A stretch of DNA of 64,000 nt. Source: Dehalococcoidia bacterium. GTDB taxonomy: Bacteria > Chloroflexota > Dehalococcoidia > Lucifugimonadales > UBA3495. The stretch lies in assembly GCA_022451945.1 (NCBI GenBank), contig JAKUNK010000008.1, positions 44,195 through 108,194 on the forward strand, given 5' to 3'. The notes under the pieces are model-generated. The model was not told where the DNA came from. It saw only the letters and a list, made by a program, of their open reading frames with translations, and made no database searches. Below, piece after piece: positions 7,985 through 64,000 of this stretch. Positions within the stretch are counted from its first letter, which is position 1. The number at the start of each line of letters is the position of its first letter. Made by a program: the position numbers and the translations under genes.

Positions 7985-9745
7985 CTAATACCCCACCGCA
8001 TACGCCTCGCACCTTGGGTCTGCGCCACCCTGCAGGACTTTAGTTTCCGGGTTACGCGTGATAGCGCAGTATAGAGAAGAACCCTCCCACCAGTCGGGAT
8101 ACATCTCAATGGTATGCCCCTTCCGACGCAGAGACTCAGCAGTCTCATCTGATATTCGGCCTTCCAATCGCAACATGCCCGGCTCGTACTTAGAAGGAAA
8201 GCCAGACTGCGGAAAGTTGTAGCTGAAGAACCGTGGCTCTTCCACTGCTTCCTGGGGATCCCGTCCGAATTCCAGGATGTTTAGCAGCAACTGCAGGGTC
8301 CCCTGTGGTATGTGGTCGCCGCCGTGGGCTCCTAGAGCCATCACCGGCTCGCCGTCCTGCAATACCAACGCCGGGGCAGGGGTTAGCCTGGGCCGTTTGC
8401 CTGGCTGCACCGAGGCCGGAGCTGATTCGTCCAACTTAGATTGGGAACCTCTCAGCGAGAAGGCCAGACCGGTTCCTGGTATGATCGGTCCGCCATTCTT
8501 GGTACCCTCAGAGGGTGTGCTGGAGAAGATGTTACCGTCCCGGTCAATCACTGCGAAGTAAGAAGTTCCACCGCCGCTAGGGCCCGCTGTTGCCAATGGG
8601 ACCGGGGCGTCCTTGGGGGACAACGGTCCGCCGTTCAAAGTGGGTTTGCGACCTCGCGGGTCTCCGGCGGGAGGCATTCCTGGCCAGGCCATATCCTCAT
8701 GGATGAGTACCCTGCGCTGCGCAAGGTACTCTTCGGAAAGCAGCTCGTTGATCGGAACATCCACAAAGTACGGGTCACCAACATATTGTTCCCGGTCCGC
8801 GAATGCCAGGTTCAGTGCTTGACTCACGGTGTGTATGTACTCCGGCGTGTTGTGCCCCATCGATGACAGATCGAAACCTTCCAGAATCTTGAGGGCCTGA
8901 GGGAAGGTCGGCCCCTGTCCCCACGGCCCGGTACTATAGACATCGTATCCTTTGTAATTCACCGTTACCGGCGTGCCAACTTTCACATGATAGCGGGCCA
9001 GATCATCTTGGGTGAGCAGCCCGCCCAACTGCTGGTTGAAAGCCACGATCTTTCGGCTCAGGTCACCGGTGTATATCTCGTCCCTGGCCGCCTGCAGGGC
9101 AGCTTCCCGGCCATTGCCAGCGTTTGCGCTCTCGATCTCCGCTAACATGGACAGCGTGGCACCAAGGTCTTTCTGGTAGAAGATCTCCCCCTGCTTGGGA
9201 GGCTTTCCATTGGGCAGGTAAATCTCAGCCGTTGAGGGATGAGCGTTATAAGCATCAAATGCGGTCACAAATCGGCCTGCCAGGTAGCGGAACATGGGGA
9301 AACCGTCACTGGCAAGATCGATGGCGGCTGATGCCACTTGGCCAAAGGCCATGGTCCCGAACTGGGACAGAGACGTTATCCACGAGTCCGCGGCCGCAGG
9401 AGTCAGCGAGTTCATCACTCCTGGCACGAGTTTACCTCCGTGGTGTTTATTGAAGTAATCAACCGATGCTGCCTGCGGCCACACCCCTAGGCCATCTACT
9501 TCCACCACTTCTTTGCGGTCAGCCAAGTAAATGACAGTAGGAGCCACTCCCAAGAAACTACAGTCGTCCACGTGCACCACGTTCAACGCGATTCCCACCG
9601 CCACACCTGCGTCGATAGCGTTGCCGCCCTTCCTCAATATGTCCAGCCCCGCCATGGCGGCGCTGGGGTGACTAGCTACCACCATGCCATTCGTGCCCTG
9701 CATCAGCGGGCGGAAACTGGTTAACGTGGTTCCTGGTACGGGCAT
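7985..9745 (-). CDS. gamma-glutamyltransferase-family Ntn hydrolase without signal peptide
   Basis: 586 aa. The GGGTSYFAV autoprocessing-Thr context and overall GGT-like sequence. The N-terminus MPVPGTTLTSFRPLMQG has no hydrophobic signal region. Confidence 0.8.
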   Translation of the reverse strand: MPVPGTTLTSFRPLMQGTNGMVVASHPSAAMAGLDILRKGGNAIDAGVAVGIALNVVHVDDCSFLGVAPTVIYLADRKEVVEVDGLGVWPQAASVDYFNKHHGGKLVPGVMNSLTPAAADSWITSLSQFGTMAFGQVASAAIDLASDGFPMFRYLAGRFVTAFDAYNAHPSTAEIYLPNGKPPKQGEIFYQKDLGATLSMLAEIESANAGNGREAALQAARDEIYTGDLSRKIVAFNQQLGGLLTQDDLARYHVKVGTPVTVNYKGYDVYSTGPWGQGPTFPQALKILEGFDLSSMGHNTPEYIHTVSQALNLAFADREQYVGDPYFVDVPINELLSEEYLAQRRVLIHEDMAWPGMPPAGDPRGRKPTLNGGPLSPKDAPVPLATAGPSGGGTSYFAVIDRDGNIFSSTPSEGTKNGGPIIPGTGLAFSLRGSQSKLDESAPASVQPGKRPRLTPAPALVLQDGEPVMALGAHGGDHIPQGTLQLLLNILEFGRDPQEAVEEPRFFSYNFPQSGFPSKYEPGMLRLEGRISDETAESLRRKGHTIEMYPDWWEGSSLYCAITRNPETKVLQGGADPRCEAYAVGY

Positions 9746-10208
9746 CAGGGGTCCCTCCGAGTTATCATATTTCGTGTCGCAGATCTAAGATCAGAGATCT
9801 CCAACGATTTGGTGGGCGCATTACCAGAACTTGTAAGCGCCAGAGAAGTTAGATGCCAAGCCGATGAATATTCAGAGCGTTCCGTCGCGGTCTCTGAGAA
9901 CTTTCAAGAACTGTCCGAAAGTGGTGCGCTCGTTGTTCTAGGCGGCCGCAAGCATTTCAGCCTCTATCAGACCGTATCCGTCTCCTCTTCTCCCAAATAG
10001 CAAAATCAGCCGGTGCGGCCAGAAGACCTGTCGTACTGGGCTCAGATGAATCACGGGCATTTTAACAAGATCCCTGACCCAATGAATCAGTGAAGTTGGA
10101 TTCGGTCTCTACCGGGAGTAAACTGAAGCCAACACTGATTGTGGCTGCAGCTCCGGATGATTGCGGCCAGAGACCTGGCGAACAGATAAAATTCGGAGGA
10201 TGACAACC

Positions 10209-54934: not shown

Positions 54935-55747
54935 ATGTCCACTGAACAAGAACAGATAAAAGAGCTGGTAAAGGAGCGCTATGGCGCACGTGCCGACCGG
55001 GTGATAAACCTAACCCCAGCCGAACTGGAACATGAACACGATGAAGGCTGCGGTTGTTCAACTGACACTGTTTGTTGCGGGCCCACTGATCTAGACCACG
55101 CCATGATCCTCTACAGTGACGGTCAACTGTCCGGACTGCCAGTGGAGTCCGTCGCCGCATCCGCTGGCTGCGGCAACCCCACAGCCCTAGCCGGGCTAAA
55201 GCCTGGAGAGAAAGTGCTTGACCTGGGATCAGGCGGCGGTATTGATTGTTTCCTGGCTGCCCAGCAAGTTGGCGAAGCCGGCCAGGTAACCGGACTGGAC
55301 ATGACTCCGTCCATGCTAGAACTAGCCCGCGAGAACAAGTCCAAGCTGGGCATCGAGAACGTAGAATTCGTTCAAGGTGAGATGGAGAACATGCCCATAC
55401 CTAACTCCAGCGTAGACGTAATCATATCTAATTGCGTGGTGTGCCTATCCCCAGACAAGGACGCCGTATTCGAAGAAAGTTTCCGAGTATTGTCACCCGG
55501 CGGGCGAATCCATCTCTCTGATGTAATGGCCCTCACCGACGATGGCCCCAGCGTATCCTCATCCGATGACTGGGTGTCCTGCACTGCCGGAGCCGAGCAT
55601 ATGGATGTATACCGCGACCGGCTGATCCGCGCAGGGTTCACAGACATCGAGTTCACCAGCGAGCAAATAGATTACATGAAAGACCGTGCCGAGCGGCCAT
55701 CCACCAATACCGCCGGCTACAAAATAGTGGCCCACAAGCCCACCTAG
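54935..55747 (+). CDS. arsM: SAM-dependent methyltransferase, arsenite methyltransferase-like
   Basis: 270 aa. [16 protein letters not shown] (SAM motif I) and ISNCVVCLS Cys positions. Cys-rich N-terminal [11 protein letters not shown]. Confidence 0.65.
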
Positions 55748-55975: not shown

Positions 55976-56689
55976 CTATCCAAACGGTATGCGCTTAAAC
56001 CCTTCCGCGTAGGCCATGCCTATCTTGGCACCAGTGCGGATACGGCCTTGCTGGAACCACTCGTCCGCGTTCTCTTGATCCACCTGAGAAACGTGGGCCT
56101 TCAGGGCTTTGATTGCAGTGTCCATGTACGCTTCCACATCCACGTAGTTGTCCGCATTATCGCCGCCCCCGGCAATCCAGACTTCACGAACTTTGTGTGG
56201 CTCCAGCCCTTCTTCTAAGAGTTCCGGAAAAGTGAGACGGTCACGGGCTGTTGGAAATATGGCCGATAGTGCGGCCTCGCCAGCCGCCAGATGATCTGGA
56301 TGGCTAACGTAATATCCACGTTCAACATCCCTGGCCGGGCTTCCCGTGATTACCACATCGGGTTTGTAGCGGCGAATCTCTCTTGCTATGTCTTTCCGTA
56401 ATTCCAGTGTCGGCTCTAGATAGGCGTCCGGGTAACCCAAGAAAACCACATCCTGCAGTCCCAAGACTTTGCCGGCATCCCTCTGCTCTCTCTCTCGTAT
56501 CTTGATCAGCTGTTCGCTAGTCATCTCTGGATCGGAACTGCCCTTGCTACCGTCGGTGCAAAGCACATAAACCACGTCCCAGCCTTCCGCACACCACTTA
56601 GCCACAGTCCCTGAACAGGTCCACTCAGCATCGTCAGGGTGGGCCATAATCACCATTCCTCTACGAAACGGCTCTTCATTTTCCGCCAT
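55976..56689 (-). CDS. PIG-L/LmbE-family N-acetylglucosaminyl deacetylase
   Basis: 237 aa. VIMAHPDDAE and HPDH motifs. Confidence 0.85.
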   Translation of the reverse strand: MAENEEPFRRGMVIMAHPDDAEWTCSGTVAKWCAEGWDVVYVLCTDGSKGSSDPEMTSEQLIKIREREQRDAGKVLGLQDVVFLGYPDAYLEPTLELRKDIAREIRRYKPDVVITGSPARDVERGYYVSHPDHLAAGEAALSAIFPTARDRLTFPELLEEGLEPHKVREVWIAGGGDNADNYVDVEAYMDTAIKALKAHVSQVDQENADEWFQQGRIRTGAKIGMAYAEGFKRIPFG

Positions 56690-56803
56690 GGAATATTCCT
56701 CCCAATTTGTCGGCCTAAGTCTTGCTCATCAGCTAAATTCAGGCTCGAAAATCAGTGTATCATAGCTAAATGTAAACCCAGGATCTCACTCAGAGGAGCC
56801 TTC

Positions 56804-57190
56804 ATGCCCACACTCTGGGCCCATACAGTAGAATTCGCCAACATATTGGTGGGCGACGACCTACCGATTCTGGTGAAATTCGACTTCCGACCGCCCGCTC
56901 AAGGCGGGGTTGAGCCACCTGCCGAAGAGCCGGTGGATGCTGACAGGTTAACCGCCTACGTCAAAGAACTGCTCTTCAAATCCTTTCCAACGGACATCGT
57001 GAACAGTGACGACACGGCTATAGAAACAGAAAGCTTGATCAAGTTCCTTCCCGGCGACACGGTCAGCATATGCGGTAAGGTGGCTAAGAAGTCAGAGGAA
57101 GGCGATAAGCAAATGGTGGAGTGCCAGGTGGTTATAGAGTCTCAAGATGGTGTCACCCTGGCCAACGCCAGGGCGATGGTCAGCTTCTAG
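56804..57190 (+). CDS. hot-dog-fold (MaoC-like) small protein
   Basis: ORF from 56639. ATG 56804 follows AGAGGAG (128 aa). C-terminal pattern PGDTVSICGKV...VECQVVIESQDGVTLANARAMV. Confidence 0.45.
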   Translation: MPTLWAHTVEFANILVGDDLPILVKFDFRPPAQGGVEPPAEEPVDADRLTAYVKELLFKSFPTDIVNSDDTAIETESLIKFLPGDTVSICGKVAKKSEEGDKQMVECQVVIESQDGVTLANARAMVSF

Positions 57191-57584
57191 TGCGAGGGTT
57201 TCTGCGGCGTCTTCTGGCGGATGGACGTGGAGGGACTCTCTCTTCCAACTCTCCCGTTTCCCGTTCGGCCGGTTCATCATCGTCAGCCATCCGTTGACGG
57301 TACACAGTCCACTGTACCTGAGTTACCAAAGTTAACAGCAACCCTGGTACGTAAAACGTGAAAATCGGCTGATAGATGCCGTCGCTCAGCCACCTAACAG
57401 CCATGACTCCGCCCACGATCAAAAATGCCCAGGCCACTCCTCCAAACATCACGTTGGTGTTCCAAGGAGACCTAATGGCCAGCAGCGACCCGGACGGCCA
57501 CAAGATGAACATCGGAATCATGAACTCAGGCCGGTAATACCAGGGCTTGGGAAAAGATGGGCCCTGCTCTTCTTTTTGCATCAA
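57180..57584 (-). CDS. hypothetical membrane protein with Arg-rich tail
   Basis: 134 aa. Three predicted hydrophobic helices and a C-terminal RRRRRNPRTRS. Confidence 0.5.
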   Translation of the reverse strand: MMQKEEQGPSFPKPWYYRPEFMIPMFILWPSGSLLAIRSPWNTNVMFGGVAWAFLIVGGVMAVRWLSDGIYQPIFTFYVPGLLLTLVTQVQWTVYRQRMADDDEPAERETGELEERVPPRPSARRRRRNPRTRS

Positions 57585-57678
57585 TTGATTGAGACCAGGC
57601 GTACTTGGATTTCAGCCCCATTTTAGCACCTGTATTTTCCCCGCGAAACACCGCTTTTCATCGTTGGCTCCGTCTCTA

Positions 57679-57707
57679 TTGACACCTATCTAACCCTTCA
57701 CGATAAT
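57679..57707 (+). promoter_or_regulatory. sigma-70-like promoter (TTGACA-17 nt-GATAAT)
   Basis: TTGACA at 57679-57684, a 17-nt spacer and GATAAT at 57702-57707. About 260 nt upstream of the rhodanese start. Confidence 0.5.
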
Positions 57708-57970
57708 GACCACTCCAGGCTGAGCTGTCGAGAACTGCAGACTTCGGATGCCAACTGTCGCCGTTCATGTCCACAGCACAGACGTTCATTCCCTCAACCA
57801 GAGAGCATTCGGCTTTAAGGCCGGCGAGACTACTACTTTCAGAACCACCAAATGGCACAAACTTTATAGCTCAAAAGTTGAACGTGGGTTGAACACGGGA
57901 GCCGGCATATAGGATGGCGTCTCGGTCAGCACCGCGAAACATATATACAGGTATACAGGAGACGACACAG

Positions 57971-59548
57971 ATGGCCCAGAAGATCTCCTCCCAAGGCCTA
58001 AACGACCTACTACAAGGGAAGTCTCCCTTCGCGTTGATTGACGTCCGGGAGTCCGGCGAATACAACGCCACCCACATACCCGGTGCAGCCCTCATACCTC
58101 GCCGTCGGATCGAGTACATAATCGAAAGCTCAGTGCCGTTCAAAGGAACTCGAATAGTCGTCTGCTGTGACGACGGGCGCCGCTCTCAGTTAGCCTCGGC
58201 AACCCTGGACAAATTAGGGTACACCGATGTCCATTATCTTGAAGGTGGTACCAATCGCTGGTCCAGTAACGACCTACCAACAGAGTGGGGTGTGAATGTC
58301 CCCAGCAAGGACTTCGGCGAGATGCAAGAAGTTGTCCACCACGTCCCCGAGATTACCGCCGACGACCTCCATCAGAAGATTGAGAATGGAGAGAAACTGA
58401 TCATCTTAGACACCCGCACACCGGAGGAATACCACAACTTCTGCATCCCCGGCGGACGCAGCATGCCAGGCGGTGAGTTGGCCTTACGCATTACCGACAT
58501 TAAAAAAGAACTAGACCCTGACACCACCTTAGTGATTAACTGCGCAGGCCGGACCCGCAGCATCATGGGTACACGCGTATTGCAGCGAATGGGAGTGGAG
58601 GCAGTGGGTCTCAAGAACGGTACTTCAGGCTGGCTGTTGGCCGGTTACAACCTGGAATACGGCGGAGACCGATTGACTCTTCCCGACGTTTCCAAAGAGA
58701 GCCGCGCCGCTGCTGAAGAATACGCCGCCAAACTGGCAAGTGAGGACGGCGTCGGCTACCTGGACATCCCTGCCCTTCGGCAAGCCGTAGCCAAACAAAC
58801 CCAAGAATCAGTGTACCTAATAGACGTCCGAACCGAGGGCGAATTCAAAGCGGGACACATCCCCGGCTTCCGCTGGTTTCCTGGCGGACAGGCCGTCCAA
58901 CGCTCAGATGACGTGGCCGTGGTCAAAAACGCCACCTACATTTTCTGCTGCGACGGCAAAGCTAGGGCCACTATCACGGGATCCATATACCGCCAACTCG
59001 GCCACGAGAACGTCTTCGCTGTCGATGGCGGAACTCTAGCCTGGCAAGCTGCCGGGCAGCGTCTGGAAACCGGGTTCACGACCAGCAGTCCCGCTGGTAT
59101 GAAAGAGGCCGAAGCATTAGTGAAAAAGGTTTCCGCTGAAGACCTAAGTCATAACCAAGCTGACCTGGTACTCTACGTAGACACCAGCGAAGACTTTTCT
59201 CAGGGCCACACTCCAGGCGCCAAGTGGATTACTCGCAGTTGGCTGGAGATCGAGATCGCGGACATAGCTCCATCCAAGAGCGCATCAATCGCGGTAACCT
59301 GCCGTGACGGACGTAGTTCAACCCTGGCTGCTGCCACACTTCAAGGCCTGGGTTACACGAATATCACCACCCTGGACGGCGGTATGACTGCTTGGAAGCA
59401 AGCTGGGTTGCCCGTTGAAGAGGGCCTTACCGGCATCGTGCGCCCGCCCTCTGATATCAATTATTTGGGCGTGTCCCGCAGCTACGGCGAAATGATGAAT
59501 TACCTGAGGTGGGAGACCGCCCTGGGAGAGAAATACGCCGCCGACTAG
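57971..59548 (+). CDS. four-domain rhodanese (sulfurtransferase) protein
   Basis: ORF from 57914. ATG 57971 follows AGGAG (525 aa). Four ~120-aa rhodanese units, each with an active-site-loop Cys: CCDDGRRS, CAGRTRS, CCDGKARA, CRDGRSS. Confidence 0.85.
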   Translation: MAQKISSQGLNDLLQGKSPFALIDVRESGEYNATHIPGAALIPRRRIEYIIESSVPFKGTRIVVCCDDGRRSQLASATLDKLGYTDVHYLEGGTNRWSSNDLPTEWGVNVPSKDFGEMQEVVHHVPEITADDLHQKIENGEKLIILDTRTPEEYHNFCIPGGRSMPGGELALRITDIKKELDPDTTLVINCAGRTRSIMGTRVLQRMGVEAVGLKNGTSGWLLAGYNLEYGGDRLTLPDVSKESRAAAEEYAAKLASEDGVGYLDIPALRQAVAKQTQESVYLIDVRTEGEFKAGHIPGFRWFPGGQAVQRSDDVAVVKNATYIFCCDGKARATITGSIYRQLGHENVFAVDGGTLAWQAAGQRLETGFTTSSPAGMKEAEALVKKVSAEDLSHNQADLVLYVDTSEDFSQGHTPGAKWITRSWLEIEIADIAPSKSASIAVTCRDGRSSTLAAATLQGLGYTNITTLDGGMTAWKQAGLPVEEGLTGIVRPPSDINYLGVSRSYGEMMNYLRWETALGEKYAAD

Positions 59549-59609
59549 ACCAGCACAGACCACATGAGACTGAAATCAATCTCTATGATAAATACTGAGG
59601 AGGGACTTG

Positions 59610-60800
59610 ATGGCCACGCGACAAGATAATGTGATTCCTGATTTTCTGAGGATGGACGAGGCGATCGGTTCAGACCCCGCCAACGCCCACAAGAGCGGTA
59701 ACTGGCACGGCTGGCCCACGAAAGACCTGAACCCCGTCACTCTCATGGACGACGAGGGCCGGACAGTCCGTATTCGCACTCCTGTGATGGAGCTTGAAGG
59801 CCTGATCACTCCCACCGATCTGCACTACACCGTGCAACACTTCGCCGTTCCCCCGGTTGTGCCGACAGACCAGTGGGAGCTGAAAATCCACGGTCAGGTA
59901 AAGAATGAACTGACTCTGAATTTCGATCAACTCCGGCGTTTCCCTGGACGCAGCGTACGCACCGTCATGGAATGCTCGGGGAGCGACGCCACTTTCTTCG
60001 AATACTTCAAAGACGAAGGCCCTAAGCCTTCCCGAACCCAAGAGTGCATGATTCTTAGCACCGGCGAATGGACCGGCGTCCCTCTAGCCGCTGTGCTGAA
60101 CGCCGCCGGTCTTAGTGACAAGTCCCTTTACGTCAGGGCCGTTGGAAACGACGAAGGAGTGCCCGCAACAGCCGCTGAAGGCACCAAGCCTTTCTACTAT
60201 GACAAAGGTTTGCCCATACAGAAAGCGCTCCATCCCGACACTATCCTGGCCTACGCGCAGAACGGAGCGTTGCTGGAACACCTCCACGGCGCACCTGTCC
60301 GGCTCCTAGTGCCCGGTTGGTCAGGAAACTGGTCGGTGAAGTGGCTGACAGATCTTGAGATCCTTGACCACATGCCCGACTGCTGGTACCACTACGAGTT
60401 CTACTATTATGGCGACTCAGCTGACGACCCCAATAAGGAACTCATCACAACCCTCGGCGTGAAGTCCATCGTGACCCAGCCCAATGATGACACTGAAGAA
60501 ATGAGCAAGGGCGTCCACATGGTCCGTGGTTACGCCTGGAGCGGGGCTGGGGCGATATCTGAAGTTGATGTCAGCGTCGACGGCGGAGAGACCTGGCATG
60601 CCGCCCACATCGAAGAACCGCGCGACCGATTCATGTGGGTTCGCTGGTCCTACCGCTGGGAAGCTGGCAAAGCGGGCGACTACACTATAATGTCTCGCGC
60701 CACTGACGAGATAGGCAGAGTCCAGTCTCGCGAACCCCGCTACAACAACATGCGCAAGAACTTCAGCGCCATAGTTGGATATCCGGTCAAAGTTAAATAG
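59610..60800 (+). CDS. sulfite-oxidase-family molybdopterin oxidoreductase with dimerisation domain, no signal peptide (paralogue A)
   Basis: ATG 59610 follows GAGGAGGG (396 aa). FRRFPGRSVRTVMECSGSD (Mo-Cys context), HGAPVRLLVPGW and a C-terminal GYAWSGAG..VSVDGGETWHAA Ig-like domain. Confidence 0.8.
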   Translation: MATRQDNVIPDFLRMDEAIGSDPANAHKSGNWHGWPTKDLNPVTLMDDEGRTVRIRTPVMELEGLITPTDLHYTVQHFAVPPVVPTDQWELKIHGQVKNELTLNFDQLRRFPGRSVRTVMECSGSDATFFEYFKDEGPKPSRTQECMILSTGEWTGVPLAAVLNAAGLSDKSLYVRAVGNDEGVPATAAEGTKPFYYDKGLPIQKALHPDTILAYAQNGALLEHLHGAPVRLLVPGWSGNWSVKWLTDLEILDHMPDCWYHYEFYYYGDSADDPNKELITTLGVKSIVTQPNDDTEEMSKGVHMVRGYAWSGAGAISEVDVSVDGGETWHAAHIEEPRDRFMWVRWSYRWEAGKAGDYTIMSRATDEIGRVQSREPRYNNMRKNFSAIVGYPVKVK

Positions 60801-60829
60801 CAGGTTCTGATGCTCAGGAGTTAGACCAA

Positions 60830-61180
60830 ATGCCCATAATCGACCACACAGACGTCCGTCTCTCACCAACAACTGAGAGGGTTCGGGAGCGGTACCTAGT
60901 ATCTAAAGAGCTAGGTGCGTTATCATTAACCGTGAAAGAGGTTGAGATTTCCCCAGGGTGGGAAGGACGCATGCACACCCACCCGATAGATGTCTCAATC
61001 CAGGTGTTGTCCGGCGCCATCCAAATCATTCTTGGTGACGAAGTCCGGACGGTACGGGCGGGAACAACTCTGCTGGCCCCGCCTGGAGTACCCCACAAGA
61101 TGATTCACCATCTTTGGACACCGGCATTATTGCTGATTACATATCCGTCGTCGGAACTAGAGACCGACCACCTGGAATAA
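60830..61180 (+). CDS. cupin-2 domain protein
   Basis: 116 aa. GRMHTHPIDVSIQVLSG and LLAPPGVPHKM cupin motifs. Confidence 0.7.
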   Translation: MPIIDHTDVRLSPTTERVRERYLVSKELGALSLTVKEVEISPGWEGRMHTHPIDVSIQVLSGAIQIILGDEVRTVRAGTTLLAPPGVPHKMIHHLWTPALLLITYPSSELETDHLE

Positions 61181-61209
61181 GCAACACAGCTTCTTGAGGA
61201 GGAGCCCTT

Positions 61210-62316
61210 ATGGCCTTGCCACAGATTGGTACGAAAGCGGAACCGCAGATCATCCCCACCAATGCGGGCCTACGGACCTGGGCCGTACCGCCAGAGGGAT
61301 TACAGAACAACATCGTTCCCAACGACCTGTTTTACATCCGCAATCACTGGAAAGATAGCCCTGAGATCGACATCAACACGTTCACATTGAAGATTGACGG
61401 TGAAGTTGAACGGGAGATTACACTGTCTTTCGAAGACCTCAAGAAACTACCTCAAAAGCGCTTCCAGGTTGCCTTCGAGTGTTGCGGCAATAGCCCGGTG
61501 CCTGAGTACTACACCAAGGCCTTGCGCATTAGCTCGGTCATGGAACAGATCAAGGGCCACGGCATCATGGGCAATGCCGAATGGGCGGGAGTCTCCCTCA
61601 AAGATGTGCTGGAACTGGCTGGAGTCAAAGACTCAGCCGTCGAAGTCATGTTTGAAGGCGCTGACCACGGTGCTGACGAAGTGGTAGGCGACCCTTCCGA
61701 AGTTACTTACGAGCGTAGTCTGCCCGTGAAGAAAGCCCTTCACGAAGACACCATCTTGGCCTACGAGATGAACGGAGAGCCTCTGCCCAAGGACCACGGT
61801 TACCCGCTGCGTCTCTTAGTATCTGGCTGGTACGGGATGAACTCAGTCAAGTGGCTTGTGGGCATCCACGTGCTGGATCACAAGTTCGAAGGGTTCTACA
61901 TGACCCAACGTTACATGACCATGAACGAACCAGGCAGCCCGGAGCCATATCGGTACTATAGCAAGCTTCAGGTCAAGTCCATCATAACCAACCCTGTCCC
62001 TGGTGAGATTGTGCCTCTAAGCGGGTACAATCTAGCGGGCGCCGCCTGGTCCGGCGAGGAAGACATCGAAGAAGTAGAGATTAGCACTGACGGCGGCGAG
62101 ACCTGGGACCCGGTGGAGAAACTCCACGACCGTGAGGCTTACTCTTGGTACCGTTGGGAGCACACCTGGAAACCCAAGGCGGCAGGCAAATACACTATCA
62201 TGTGCCGCGCCACCAACGTGGAAGGCGTCACCCAGCCCTTAGAATTCCCGAATCCTTGGGACGGTCGGGGCTACGGGAACAACATGGTTTTCCCATACGA
62301 GGTAGAAGTCCGATAG
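61210..62316 (+). CDS. sulfite-oxidase-family molybdopterin oxidoreductase, no signal peptide (paralogue B)
   Basis: 368 aa. GAGGAGGAG SD. LFYIRNHW, FQVAFECCGNS, HGYPLRLLVSGWYG and GAAWSGEE..ISTDGGETWDPV. Confidence 0.8.
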   Translation: MALPQIGTKAEPQIIPTNAGLRTWAVPPEGLQNNIVPNDLFYIRNHWKDSPEIDINTFTLKIDGEVEREITLSFEDLKKLPQKRFQVAFECCGNSPVPEYYTKALRISSVMEQIKGHGIMGNAEWAGVSLKDVLELAGVKDSAVEVMFEGADHGADEVVGDPSEVTYERSLPVKKALHEDTILAYEMNGEPLPKDHGYPLRLLVSGWYGMNSVKWLVGIHVLDHKFEGFYMTQRYMTMNEPGSPEPYRYYSKLQVKSIITNPVPGEIVPLSGYNLAGAAWSGEEDIEEVEISTDGGETWDPVEKLHDREAYSWYRWEHTWKPKAAGKYTIMCRATNVEGVTQPLEFPNPWDGRGYGNNMVFPYEVEVR

Positions 62317-62369
62317 CAAACCTAACGGTGTTTCCTTGGAAGAATCGTTAAACGAACAAAGATACAAGT

Positions 62370-62651
62370 TTGAGCACATCTAACCGCGTCCCGGTACCAC
62401 TCGCATTCTCATTGGTGCTGGCGATTGTCCTGGCCCTGATCATATTCTTCGGGGCTTGGGCTGCGTCGGCCGATGTGGGCAACCAACGCACCTTGGCCTT
62501 CGGTCTACCCGGCACCACTACCACATCAAGTGGCTCCACTGTTAACGATCAGAGCTCAAGGCCGTTCCAAGTAGCCCGACTGAACGATCAAGGCACAGCA
62601 GGGGACACTTGGTGGGGTGGTGCGTTCTTGAGGGCTTGCCCCCTCCACTGA
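62370..62651 (+). CDS. hypothetical small secreted/membrane-anchored protein
   Basis: 93 aa from TTG. Hydrophobic segment LAFSLVLAIVLALIIFFGAWAASA followed by a Thr/Ser/Gly-rich region. Weak support. Confidence 0.35.
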   Translation: MSTSNRVPVPLAFSLVLAIVLALIIFFGAWAASADVGNQRTLAFGLPGTTTTSSGSTVNDQSSRPFQVARLNDQGTAGDTWWGGAFLRACPLH

Positions 62652-62732
62652 AAAAAGGCCAGCTAGATCCAAAGCGATTAATCGAAAGGACATAGGGAGG
62701 CTGTTCGGGCCTCCCTTAAGATAACCAATACC

Positions 62733-64000
62733 ATGGCAGTCCCCACTACCCCGACTCACGCAACCACTCGCCCTCCCAAAGGGATCCACCAGGCCTGGAT
62801 CATACTCGCGATTATAGCCATGGCCCAAATAGTGGGCCAATCCATCAGCATGGCGGCCGGAATCATGGTCGCGCCGTTGAACGACCCCGAAGGTGGCTTT
62901 GGCTGGAACATGGGGCTGATCGGCGCTGCCTTGGCCACCTACTACCTTTTCGGCGCCTTGGTAGCCCCGATTACCGGCATGCTTGGCGACCGCTACGGTG
63001 CTCGCCCTGCCATGTTCGCCTGCGGAGTGCTATACGCCGTCAGCATGGCCCTTATCGGCTCCGTCAGCCACCTTTGGCAGTTCTTCATCTATTTTGGGGT
63101 ACTGTTGTCTGTCACCCAATCACTGGCTATGGTACCCATACTAGCTTCGGTCAACGGCTGGTTCAAACAGCGCCTTGGTCTGGCCACCGGGCTTCTCTGG
63201 GCCTCAGGTGGTGTTGGTGCGGCGATGGTTGCGCCGGGCATAGCGAGCCTACTGGACGCCTTCGGCTGGCAGACCACCTTCACAGCCATCGGAATCGCGG
63301 GCGGCGGAATTCTTATGTTATTAACGGTGTTCTTCCGTTCCAAACCATCGGATATGAACGCCACTGCCTTTGGCTCCCGAGCAGATGACCCACCAGAGGT
63401 ATTCCAGAGCAAAGAGATCGAGCAGCTAAGATTGAAGGTCTTCAACAAGGCCATGCGCCGGACCCGGGCATTCTGGAACCTGCCCACCATCCACGGCCTC
63501 GGCTGTGCCGGACACGGCATAGTCTTGATTTACTCTATCCCCTTGGCGATCGAGCAAGGGGTCAGCTTATCGGCGGCGTCATTCATCCTGGCGCTGATAT
63601 CCATCTTCAGCATACTCGGCCGTTTCGTGGCTCCTATCCTGGCTGAACGTATGGGCGCCAAACCCGTAATGATGTCGGCATTGTTCGTCCAGGGCATCAC
63701 AGTGTTGGTGCTATTCTGGGCCCAGGATGCCTACGCGTTCTACCTGTTCGCAATCTTGTTCGGTCTGGGATTCGGCGGCGAGATGTCGGCTTACCTGGTG
63801 GTCAACCGTCAATACTTCGGTACAGGACCACTGGCGACCCTCTACGGGTTCGAGATGATGGGCGCGCTCGCCGGCCACGCCATTGCCACTATATTAGGAG
63901 GACTAGCCATCTACGCCACCGGCTCGTTCAGCCCTGCATTGGTAATGTCCATGCTTTTCAGCTTCGCTGGAGTGCTGGTGATCTACAGTATGGAGTCCGG
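62733..64000 (+). CDS. MFS transporter (oxalate/formate-antiporter-like), 3' end outside window
   Basis: Open frame from ATG 62733 to the window edge, so absent from the ORF track. Translation is multi-TM (..GMLGDRYGARP.., ..LFGLGFGGEMSAYLVV..). Confidence 0.8.
   Translation, partial: MAVPTTPTHATTRPPKGIHQAWIILAIIAMAQIVGQSISMAAGIMVAPLNDPEGGFGWNMGLIGAALATYYLFGALVAPITGMLGDRYGARPAMFACGVLYAVSMALIGSVSHLWQFFIYFGVLLSVTQSLAMVPILASVNGWFKQRLGLATGLLWASGGVGAAMVAPGIASLLDAFGWQTTFTAIGIAGGGILMLLTVFFRSKPSDMNATAFGSRADDPPEVFQSKEIEQLRLKVFNKAMRRTRAFWNLPTIHGLGCAGHGIVLIYSIPLAIEQGVSLSAASFILALISIFSILGRFVAPILAERMGAKPVMMSALFVQGITVLVLFWAQDAYAFYLFAILFGLGFGGEMSAYLVVNRQYFGTGPLATLYGFEMMGALAGHAIATILGGLAIYATGSFSPALVMSMLFSFAGVLVIYSMES

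Follow-up and report, generated by a model that had tools for sequence, protein, structure and literature searches.

The DNA examined here (the window) is a stretch of 64,000 nucleotides from a Dehalococcoidia bacterium, contig JAKUNK010000008.1 (G000:C96:44195-108194 of a 2.76-Mb genome, 86% complete), whose close sequence matches are named as SAR202 cluster or Dehalococcoidia metagenome-assembled genomes (MAGs). Positions 57971-64000 carry six plus-strand genes, encoding a fourfold rhodanese (rhod4), two members of the sulfite oxidase (SO) family (SUOX1 and SUOX2) on either side of a cupin, a small exported protein and a transporter of the major facilitator superfamily (MFS). This set had been proposed in a preliminary description made from the letters alone, and the list of open reading frames (ORFs) and Pfam and NCBIfam scans confirmed it. 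The cluster does not, however, begin at the rhodanese and end at the MFS gene, as that description had it: a decayed thiol-dioxygenase gene at 57748-57912 lies before it, and four further closely spaced, co-directional genes follow on the same contig beyond the window, which brings the block to about ten genes. Its features are as follows.

57679..57707, plus strand: sigma-70-like promoter TTGACA-17-GATAAT (11/12 consensus matches), the probable operon promoter.
57748..57912, plus strand: 54-codon ORF, stub of a 3-mercaptopropionate-dioxygenase-like (CDO-family) gene with the metal-binding core deleted.
57971..59548 (alternative ATG 57914), plus strand: four-domain rhodanese rhod4, four PF00581 domains (E 3e-61).
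59610..60800 (alternative start 59607), plus strand: SUOX1, signal-less SO-family molybdoenzyme with the motif ECSGSDATF (PF00174 E 5e-42, PF03404 E 2e-16).
60830..61180, plus strand: 116-aa Cupin_2 protein with invariant H49, H51, D54 and H89 (PF07883, E 1.5e-10).
61210..62316, plus strand: SUOX2, signal-less SO-family molybdoenzyme with the motif FECCGNSP and a 14-aa insert (PF00174 E 2e-54, PF03404 E 1e-11).
62370..62651, plus strand: small exported or membrane-anchored protein, 93 codons, C-terminus WWGxxFLxACPLH, recurring in 54 loci.
62733..64000, running on to window-equivalent 64118, plus strand: MFS transporter of the oxalate/formate - monocarboxylate type (PF07690, E 9e-37).
Beyond the window, after the MFS gene, co-directional: cyclase/arylformamidase-family hydrolase (PF04199).
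Beyond the window, after the cyclase-family hydrolase, co-directional: divergent Ham1/RdgB-like protein.
Beyond the window, after the Ham1-like gene, co-directional: MoxR-type AAA+ ATPase, CoxD/MadB-like (AAA_5/AAA matches).
Beyond the window, after the MoxR ATPase, co-directional: VWA_CoxE protein (PF05762, E 3e-62).

The intergenic distances in the six-gene block are 29-81 nt, and an AGGAG-type Shine-Dalgarno (SD) sequence lies 5' of the rhodanese (at 57971), SUOX1 (at 59610), cupin and SUOX2 genes, favouring the rhod4 start at 57971 over the ATG at 57914 and, for SUOX1, the ATG at 59610. No SD was found before the small ORF or the MFS gene; of the short gaps and strong SDs first reported, the gaps stand throughout and the SDs for the four genes just named. 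Farther downstream, the SD-preceded ATG of the VWA gene lies one base past the ATPase stop codon, and a convergent PAP2 gene marks the end of the ten-gene block. The AAA+ MoxR ATPase followed by the VWA_CoxE (PF05762) protein corresponds to a CoxD/CoxE-type pair; with 271 bits for the ATPase against the MadB model (cut-off 475) and 57 bits for the VWA protein against the MadC model (cut-off 600), the two belong, as judged by these scores, to neither equivalog. At the upstream end, the untranslated leader of ~260 nt thought to precede the rhodanese is in fact occupied by the internally deleted dioxygenase gene (57748-57912), which explains its length. A riboswitch in the leader was considered and rejected, as an Rfam scan of 57100-64000 gave no match and the leader is a gene stub. 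The promoter-like stretch at 57679-57707 aligns with the region upstream of an intact thiol-dioxygenase gene in locus L025.

For the comparison of gene order, 80 loci were fetched from genome records. About 50 Dehalococcoidia genomes, many of them closed chromosomes of 3-5 Mb, share the order rhod4 - SUOX1 - cupin - SUOX2 - small ORF - MFS - cyclase - Ham1 - AAA - VWA, which disposes of the concern that the arrangement might be conserved nowhere, and the ten-gene order persists where the upstream genes are quite different. The spacing between SUOX1 and SUOX2 is about 1.5 kb in all 19 other species of the genus; SUOX1 also occurs in three other genera of the family, with SUOX2 alongside in two of them. 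Wherever a Dehalococcoidia locus carries both, rhod4 directly precedes SUOX1, and the genes for the MoxR ATPase and the VWA protein stay linked to the SUOX genes through rearrangements. One congener (G016) has a paralogous set on another contig, consisting of rhod4, a 49%-identical SUOX1-like gene, a SUOX2-like gene and MFS genes. Among 300 evenly drawn Chloroflexota genomes an orthologue of SUOX1 was otherwise absent, apart from one weak match. Marine metagenomes hold more than 2,000 SUOX1 homologues (E <= 1e-10), the 120 listed being 75-94% identical, and some of the 90% clusters comprise hundreds of members.

The gene at the head of the operon is best understood from its relatives. The 54-aa product of the stub matches only residues 158-191 of their 194-aa protein (41% identity, E 6e-10). 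Of the fetched loci, 14 have a 194-aa ORF on the same strand as rhod4 and upstream of it, at a median distance of 135 nt. By whole-genome search an intact dioxygenase occupies the syntenic place in 16 of 19 congeners (in one of them at L026 5552-6136), as well as in three further genera of the family and in G035, a genome of another family. Its product passes the Pfam CDO_I model (PF05995) marginally, at 23.5 bits against a cut-off of 23. Compared with solved structures it matches 4QMA (E 4e-19), the Pseudomonas 3-mercaptopropionate dioxygenase 3USS/4TLF (8e-17) and the mercaptosuccinate dioxygenase 8VNI (1e-10), and the intact homologue keeps the HDH...H iron motif together with IHVYG (GPHDH...IH...IHVYG). 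Because only the C-terminal 34 residues are retained, this three-histidine iron site is gone from the ORF in the window, and no match to the 194-aa dioxygenase was found at E <= 1e-5 in a whole-genome search of the window's genome. Another congener (G003; L122 2767-2898) carries a different stub, the N-terminal 33 residues of the dioxygenase, and the same search gave no dioxygenase match in two further congeners. Given the differing stubs and these two genomes, the dioxygenase has been lost repeatedly while the remaining block stayed intact. In G035 the cluster consists only of the dioxygenase, rhod4, the cupin and a SUOX2-type gene, which suggests a core of these four genes, to which SUOX1 was added in the window's family.

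Rhod4 was described as having four domains, each with an active-loop cysteine, and this is upheld by the four PF00581 domains and by their loops (CDDGRRS, CAGRTRS, CDGKARA and CRDGRSS). The loop cysteines are retained in 51-53 of 53 aligned sequences (the window's and 52 orthologues), among which the domain-2 loop CAGRTRS is invariant. All four domains are of the GlpE/PspE-like catalytic type in NCBIfam, with a Cys-x5-(S/T/A) loop.

Both SUOX proteins pass the Pfam cut-offs for the molybdenum-cofactor-binding domain PF00174 and for the dimerisation domain PF03404, the presence of which had been noted from the start. No signal peptide is possible on either, because the first start codons follow upstream in-frame stops and the N-termini are hydrophilic; the earlier statement that Tat and Sec signals are lacking stands, and alternative starts cannot supply one. 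The reference SorA, SorT and SoxC sequences, six of SorA type among them, all begin with a twin-arginine (RR) Tat leader, which is found in none of the four SO-family proteins of the window's genome. The prediction that SUOX1 and SUOX2 are cytoplasmic holds on this evidence. Likewise, the absence of a haem or cytochrome partner was borne out: no such Pfam family occurs in the six proteins, no CxxCH was seen in the translations, and no gene of the ten-gene block matches a cytochrome or haem Pfam family, SorB- and SoxD-type partners included. We give an even chance to the reading that the block is a conserved SAR202 operon that oxidises reduced sulfur to sulfate in the cytoplasm. Of the intracellular sulfur-oxidation route first proposed, such a reading keeps the link to sulfur and the location, with the gene order found strongly conserved, and adds the dioxygenase context; it does not treat the two SUOX proteins as equivalent sulfite oxidases.

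Within the SO family the two proteins stand apart from the characterized enzymes. Against the SoxC model TIGR04555 (cut-off 420 bits) SUOX1 scores 236 and SUOX2 208 bits, against the SorA model NF052245 (cut-off 600) 174 and 246, and against the SorT model (cut-off 570) 149 and 156; the best NCBIfam match of SUOX1 is SoxC. Going by these scores, the block proteins are members of no curated sulfite- or sulfane-dehydrogenase family. As references we used sequences from alphaproteobacterial genomes, namely SoxC (572 and 636 bits), SorA (703 bits, with relatives near the cut-off) and a SorT-like protein (517 bits). Identity to the solved two-domain SO group is roughly 25-30%, a figure taken from Foldseek alignments of the SUOX1 model, and the closest solved structure to SUOX2 is SorA (E 6e-48); plant SO matches SUOX1 and SUOX2 weakly, at 85-118 bits. 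The AlphaFold model of SUOX1, built from a 24-sequence alignment, has a predicted local distance difference test (pLDDT) score of 64.6, and its Foldseek matches to SorA, SoxC, SorT, chicken and plant SO and nitrate reductase fall at E 1e-21 to 1e-27.

The same comparisons bear on the idea that the block does not oxidise sulfur at all, its SUOX-fold enzymes instead reducing S-oxides, N-oxides or N-hydroxylated compounds in the cytoplasm, much as MsrP/YedY or mARC do, with the Ham1-like pyrophosphatase and the hydrolase cleaning up damaged bases or metabolites. The Joint Genome Institute (JGI) labels the family "DMSO/TMAO reductase YedYZ catalytic subunit", a divergent Ham1/RdgB-like gene and a cyclase-family hydrolase gene are conserved in the block, Amidohydro_2 genes recur beside SUOX1 and beside a paralogue on contig C25, and no oxidising partner is encoded in the block. 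The JGI name, however, is a generic COG label. Moreover, both proteins have the dimerisation domain, cluster with SO, SorA and SoxC, and score only 58 (SUOX1) and 56 bits (SUOX2) against the MsrP model (cut-off 207) and weakly, at 33-41 bits, against YedY; the tightest partners are the rhodanese and, ancestrally, the thiol dioxygenase. We regard a reductase function as very improbable and return to the oxidation of reduced sulfur.

The residues of the active site separate SUOX1 from SUOX2. The molybdenum cysteine (Mo-Cys) of both, in ECSGS (SUOX1) and ECCGN (SUOX2), aligns with SorA Cys104, and the motif is invariant in 81 SUOX1 and 59 SUOX2 aligned sequences (the window's and orthologues). 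Trp and Tyr (the SorA Tyr236 equivalent) are also retained in both. At the two arginine positions, including those of the paralogues on contigs C63 and C25 of the same genome, the residues are:

SorA Arg55 (chicken R138) position: Arg in SorA, SorT, SoxC, SUOX2 and the C63 paralogue; Val in SUOX1; Ile in the C25 paralogue.
Cys+5 position (SorA R109, chicken R190): Arg in SorA, SorT and the C63 and C25 paralogues; absent in SoxC, SUOX1 (CSGSDA) and SUOX2 (CCGNSP).

SUOX1 has Val for R55 and Ala for R109. SUOX2 keeps equivalents of SorA Arg55, His57, Cys104 and Tyr236 but differs from SorA in a Pro for Arg109 and in the 14-residue insert that follows CCGNSP. From the end-points of the alignment we infer an Arg in SUOX2 at the chicken R450 position, which is ambiguous in SUOX1. 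In human sulfite oxidase the loss of the first arginine alone (R160Q) is pathogenic and cripples the enzyme. With two substrate arginines missing, SUOX1 probably does not oxidise free sulfite efficiently; SUOX2, which keeps two of three as in SorA, is plausibly a sulfite oxidiser. The step from sulfite to sulfate is thus plausible only for SUOX2, since SUOX1 is without the R55 and R109 equivalents and groups with SoxC.

This grouping comes from a maximum-likelihood tree of 34 sequences (LG+C20) that contained two SoxC sequences and neither eukaryotic, Thermus or YedY sequences nor an outgroup. SoxC and the SUOX1 clade, to which the 49% paralogue belongs, come out as sister groups, SUOX1 lying outside SoxC (support 94/90, with two long-branch SoxC and no outgroup), and SUOX2 falls, with weak support, on the SorA/SorT side. 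In approximately unbiased (AU) tests monophyly of the periplasmic references was rejected (p 0.014), as was monophyly of SUOX1 with SUOX2 (p 0.016). Neither protein is found in a clade with known non-sulfur substrates, an outcome that would have told against a role in sulfur metabolism.

Another explanation would be plain sulfite detoxification by a redundant cytoplasmic SUOX pair, the rhodanese, MoxR and VWA proteins serving only cofactor supply and maturation: rhod4 would provide sulfur for the molybdopterin dithiolene, like YnjE or the rhodanese of Variovorax, and the other two would assemble a metal site as CoxD/CoxE do. The literature on Variovorax and Advenella assigns such a cofactor role to the rhodanese beside the mercaptosuccinate dioxygenase (Msdo) (PMC5373536), the ATPase/VWA pair is MadB/MadC-like and PF05762 CoxE-like and remains tied to the SUOX genes, and Mo-Cys, Trp and Tyr are present in both SUOX proteins. 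Yet SUOX1 is without two of the three substrate arginines, and the AU test argues that the two are not recent duplicates. Four catalytic GlpE/PspE-like domains with conserved cysteines exceed the apparent need of a cofactor-sulfuration helper, and the cofactor biosynthesis genes moaC and moeA, for which a check had been suggested, are encoded elsewhere in the genome. In addition, a canonical paralogue with both arginines is already present on contig C63 (L006 7546-8610); it is signal-less, has the motif CAGNSR and may be the genome's real sulfite oxidase. We consider detoxification by a redundant pair rather unlikely, and the division of labor between SUOX1 and SUOX2 remains part of the sulfur-oxidation reading.

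The position of SUOX1 beside SoxC invites a comparison with SoxCD of Paracoccus pantotrophus (2XTS). Like SoxC, SUOX1 lacks the Arg at Cys+5 and has the LSxxEW motif; SoxC oxidises sulfane sulfur on a carrier-protein cysteine, and rhod4, a cysteine-persulfide carrier, is encoded next to SUOX1. On the other hand, SUOX1 has no Tat signal and is predicted to be cytoplasmic, no SoxD dihaem cytochrome is adjacent, and the first arginine, which SoxC keeps, is missing. Also unlike the Sox system, no gene of the block resembles SoxYZ, although no dedicated SoxYZ search was made and sox genes were not searched genome-wide. SUOX1 might be a cytoplasmic, haem-less counterpart of SoxC that oxidises the rhod4 persulfide to a sulfonate, with rhod4 in the place of SoxYZ and SUOX2 and the cupin finishing sulfite to sulfate; we put this forward as a speculation that is unlikely to be right. 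If true, reverse Dsr and sHdr would be joined by a third, molybdenum-based route from sulfane sulfur to sulfate in the cytoplasm, one that is abundant in SAR202 of the dark ocean and of sponges and has been passed to soil Alphaproteobacteria.

Orthologues of SUOX1, ~80% identical, are indeed found in MAGs of soil Alphaproteobacteria, including Stellaceae and Acetobacteraceae, on contigs of up to 2.6 Mb (loci L040-L060, L064, L073 and L092). In the tree they nest inside the Dehalococcoidia clade beside the window's sequence (98/94); this nesting, together with the identity, implies a recent transfer of SUOX1 between phyla, accompanied by the cupin and SUOX2 in three loci, where the order SUOX1 - cupin - SUOX2 is kept. 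A multi-domain rhodanese immediately follows SUOX1 or SUOX2 in two loci, and in six an Amidohydro_2 gene lies directly upstream of SUOX1. One locus has a LysR gene and a CDO-like gene upstream and one a TauD-family dioxygenase; in L043 a CDO-like gene lies 2.6 kb upstream of SUOX1. These occasional TauD- and CDO-like partners point to organosulfur chemistry. SoxC passes its cut-off in two of these genomes, G041 and G042 (572-636 bits), both of which also carry SUOX1. As separate observations, SUOX1 in locus L041 is followed by a periplasmic LTXXQ (Spy/CpxP-like) protein (Pfam match; 9328-9816) and then by an unrelated MFS transporter, and L040 has an ORF of the same size at the same position after SUOX1 (9312-9800).

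For cytoplasmic sulfur oxidation by the SAR202 operon we envisage the following scheme. In the ancestral form, the substrate of a 3-mercaptopropionate-dioxygenase-like enzyme would be a thiol or persulfide, and probably a small thiol-carboxylate that enters through the MFS transporter of monocarboxylate type, unless the same transporter exports sulfate or sulfite. Rhod4 would hold sulfane sulfur in the form of cysteine persulfides and pass it on; sulfite would be oxidised to sulfate by SUOX2 together with the cupin, its constant partner; and SUOX1 would take a different, less anionic sulfur substrate, most likely a rhodanese-bound persulfide or thiosulfonate or an organic sulfinate. Electrons might be passed to O2, as in the haem-less plant sulfite oxidase (the simplest guess), or to another acceptor, and the MoxR/CoxD-like ATPase and CoxE-type VWA protein would probably mature one metal centre. 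In the window's genome, where the dioxygenase has decayed, what is left of the module presumably works on sulfite or sulfane sulfur of other origin. The sequences directly show the gene content and its conservation, the lack of signal peptides, the patterns of active-site residues, the placement in the tree and the decay of the dioxygenase gene; the substrates, the catalytic direction and the acceptor of the scheme are inferred, as is what the cupin, the small protein, the transporter and the chaperone pair do.

Several observations weigh against the scheme. The dioxygenase is dispensable (4 of the 20 species in the genus lack it or have a decayed copy), the electron acceptor is not encoded in the block, and the cyclase-family hydrolase and the Ham1-like gene have no obvious role in sulfur metabolism. 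SUOX1 and SUOX2 lie far under the curated cut-offs for SorA, SorT and SoxC, the missing Arg at Cys+5 weakens even the assignment of SUOX2 to sulfite oxidation, and the structure comparison ranks SorA, SoxC, SorT and chicken SO about equally, so that SoxC and SorA are not separated. The link to SoxC depends on two long-branch SoxC sequences, and the groups compared in the AU tests were picked after the tree had been seen. SUOX1 is the sole gene of the cluster in 16 of 21 alphaproteobacterial loci, in variable neighbourhoods, and therefore does not require the rhodanese, cupin or SUOX2. Finally, the multi-domain rhodanese might instead support synthesis of the molybdenum cofactor, the role suggested in Variovorax (PMC5373536).

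A narrower alternative concerns the product of the dioxygenase. SUOX1 might be a sulfinate oxidoreductase converting that product, R-SO2- (for example 3-sulfinopropionate, hypotaurine, cysteine sulfinate or methanesulfinate), to the sulfonate, with free sulfite left to SUOX2. A thiol dioxygenase heads the ancestral operon, a CDO-like gene is also found near SUOX1 in the alphaproteobacterial locus L043, and Val and Ala in place of two arginines would fit an organic substituent and suit a mono-anion; the chemistry would presumably be the same as with sulfite, oxygen-atom transfer to a sulfur lone pair. This would, however, leave the rhodanese that directly precedes SUOX1 without a role, and SUOX1 persists where the dioxygenase has been lost and is absent from the minimal G035 cluster, which has the dioxygenase. 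Also counting against it, to our knowledge no SO-family sulfinate dehydrogenase has been characterised at sequence level. We judge a dedicated sulfinate enzyme distinctly unlikely.

The remaining proteins of the six-gene block fit the proposed oxidation of reduced sulfur to sulfate with different degrees of definition. The cupin has the metal-site pattern H-x-H-x2-D...H, and PDB searches with it returned generic small cupins only. It precedes the SUOX2-type gene in all 58 loci carrying both, and also in G035 (L121), and no fusion of the two was found among the 58. Its position between the SUOX genes is as described, but nothing marks it as a thiol or sulfinate dioxygenase: it is a generic Cupin_2 protein, and the real thiol dioxygenase is the separate upstream gene. 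A hydroxynitrile-lyase reading was rejected (22 bits against a cut-off of 140), and a structure predicted without an alignment (pLDDT 38) was unusable for fold search. The loci of large-genome Dehalococcoidia have an additional gene, for a small membrane protein, between the cupin and SUOX2 (L085 9612-10466, with the corresponding position in L058-L095); it contains a tandem duplication of ~250-270 bp (79-84% identity) with two repeat segments of 103-109 nt. In one genus (G020; L022 8005-9850) the cupin and SUOX2 are replaced by Uma2-family endonuclease-like and acyl-CoA-dehydrogenase-like genes, and rhod4, SUOX1, the small protein and the MFS gene are retained.

The small secreted peptide of the preliminary description is a real gene: it recurs in the 54 loci noted above, the WWGxxFLxACPLH tail is invariant, and a basic N-terminus, a single transmembrane segment and an acidic Ser/Thr/Gly linker place the C-terminus, as predicted, outside the cell. 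It has no Pfam or NCBIfam match. Because of this charge distribution, we rejected the reading of the protein, with its invariant C-terminal Cys, as a SoxY-like cytoplasmic carrier. The MFS transporter is 461 aa in full length (read in L005) and conserved in 51 loci; it scores 142 bits against the SfMCT L-lactate transporter model (cut-off 320) and 95 against the OFA family (cut-off 375), so that of the "OFA-like MFS transporter" first named the MFS assignment stands and the OFA match is far under its cut-off. Between the small ORF and the MFS gene, at 62694..62716 (no strand assigned), lies an 8-bp GC-rich inverted repeat, a putative terminator-like element as scored on the minus strand.

Among known systems, the closest precedents for the block are bacterial clusters combining a thiol dioxygenase, a rhodanese and a molybdenum oxidoreductase. 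In Variovorax paradoxus B4 and Advenella mimigardefordensis DPN7, Msdo is clustered with a rhodanese, and the sulfite released is proposed to be oxidised by a molybdopterin oxidoreductase (PMC5373536). As in these mercaptosuccinate dioxygenase clusters and those of 3-mercaptopropionate dioxygenase (3MDO), that of Pseudomonas aeruginosa included, a CDO-family thiol dioxygenase is clustered with a rhodanese-domain protein, and the dioxygenase of the window's relatives is closest among solved structures to 4QMA, 3USS/4TLF and 8VNI. The block departs from the Msdo and 3MDO clusters in the four catalytic domains of its rhodanese, in having two SO-family enzymes that lack signals and belong to different clades, and in its fixed small cupin, small exported protein, MFS transporter and MoxR/VWA pair. 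Its dioxygenase is only a stub in the window's genome, and carbon-handling genes (cystathionine lyase, CoA enzymes) are absent from it.

With SorAB of Starkeya novella (2BLF) and SorT of Sinorhizobium meliloti (4PW3) the two proteins share the two-domain SUOX fold with its dimerisation domain, but SorA and SorT carry Tat leaders, reside in the periplasm and work with a cytochrome or another redox partner. The plant (Arabidopsis) sulfite oxidase resembles them in being a haem-less SO-family enzyme without a partner cytochrome. A non-haem-iron dioxygenase, a rhodanese and a sulfite oxidase are the three activities of known aerobic units for the disposal of sulfide or thiol sulfur, such as mitochondrial ETHE1/TST/SUOX, bacterial CstB and the Variovorax/Advenella clusters; the block has the same three, all predicted to be cytoplasmic. 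In CstB, a persulfide dioxygenase - rhodanese fusion, protein S-sulfonate is relayed to rhodanese persulfide (PMC12934615). The dioxygenase of the block differs from ETHE1/CstB in being of the cupin (CDO) and not the metallo-beta-lactamase type, and two molybdenum enzymes are present. Finally, "uncharacterised single-subunit cytoplasmic enzymes" of the sulfite oxidase family are named, and in the part of the source consulted not defined, by PMC7759655 (citing Kappler 2008 and Workun 2008); by that description, on which alone the comparison is made, the signal-less, single-subunit, SUOX-fold SUOX1 and SUOX2 are alike.

SAR202 bacteria, which rank with the most numerous cells in the dark ocean, are thought to turn over organosulfur compounds and to oxidise sulfite. 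That a rhodanese and two non-canonical SUOX enzymes form one conserved operon, ancestrally headed by a thiol dioxygenase, offers a testable candidate for the cytoplasmic disposal of thiol or persulfide sulfur in these cells. It also singles out SUOX1, a SoxC-sister clade without the sulfite-binding arginines, and cautions that annotating every PF00174 protein as a sulfite oxidase would miscount sulfite-oxidising capacity. Metabolic reconstructions of SAR202 list Apr/Sat, an unspecified "sulfite oxidase" and "rhodanese" as separate predicted functions (PMC5864207, PMC5395668, PMC9416657), and no description of the operon or of the SUOX1 clade was found in the literature searched.

Additional observations concern the SO-family paralogues and the DNA upstream of the cluster. 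The C63 paralogue adjoins a divergently transcribed large subunit of the xanthine dehydrogenase (XDH)/carbon monoxide dehydrogenase family, and its orthologue in G016 adjoins XDH-family L/S/M genes. On contig C25 (L007 4819-9893) a fourth SO-family paralogue, which has the motif CAGNGR and Ile at the position of the first Arg, precedes a homologue of the small cupin, an SNase-like gene and an Amidohydro_2 gene; the pairing of SUOX and cupin recurs there in a separate context. In the window itself, the interval from a PIG-L deacetylase gene to the cluster holds two conserved hypothetical genes, at 57180-57584 (minus strand) and 56639-57190, that match no Pfam or NCBIfam model and are syntenic across the family; their products are a membrane protein of 134 aa that has an Arg-rich tail and a protein of 183 aa. 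Farther upstream, at 54935-55747 and likewise syntenic in the window's family, is a gene for an S-adenosylmethionine-dependent methyltransferase with a Cys-rich N-terminal stretch reminiscent of the arsenite methyltransferase ArsM.

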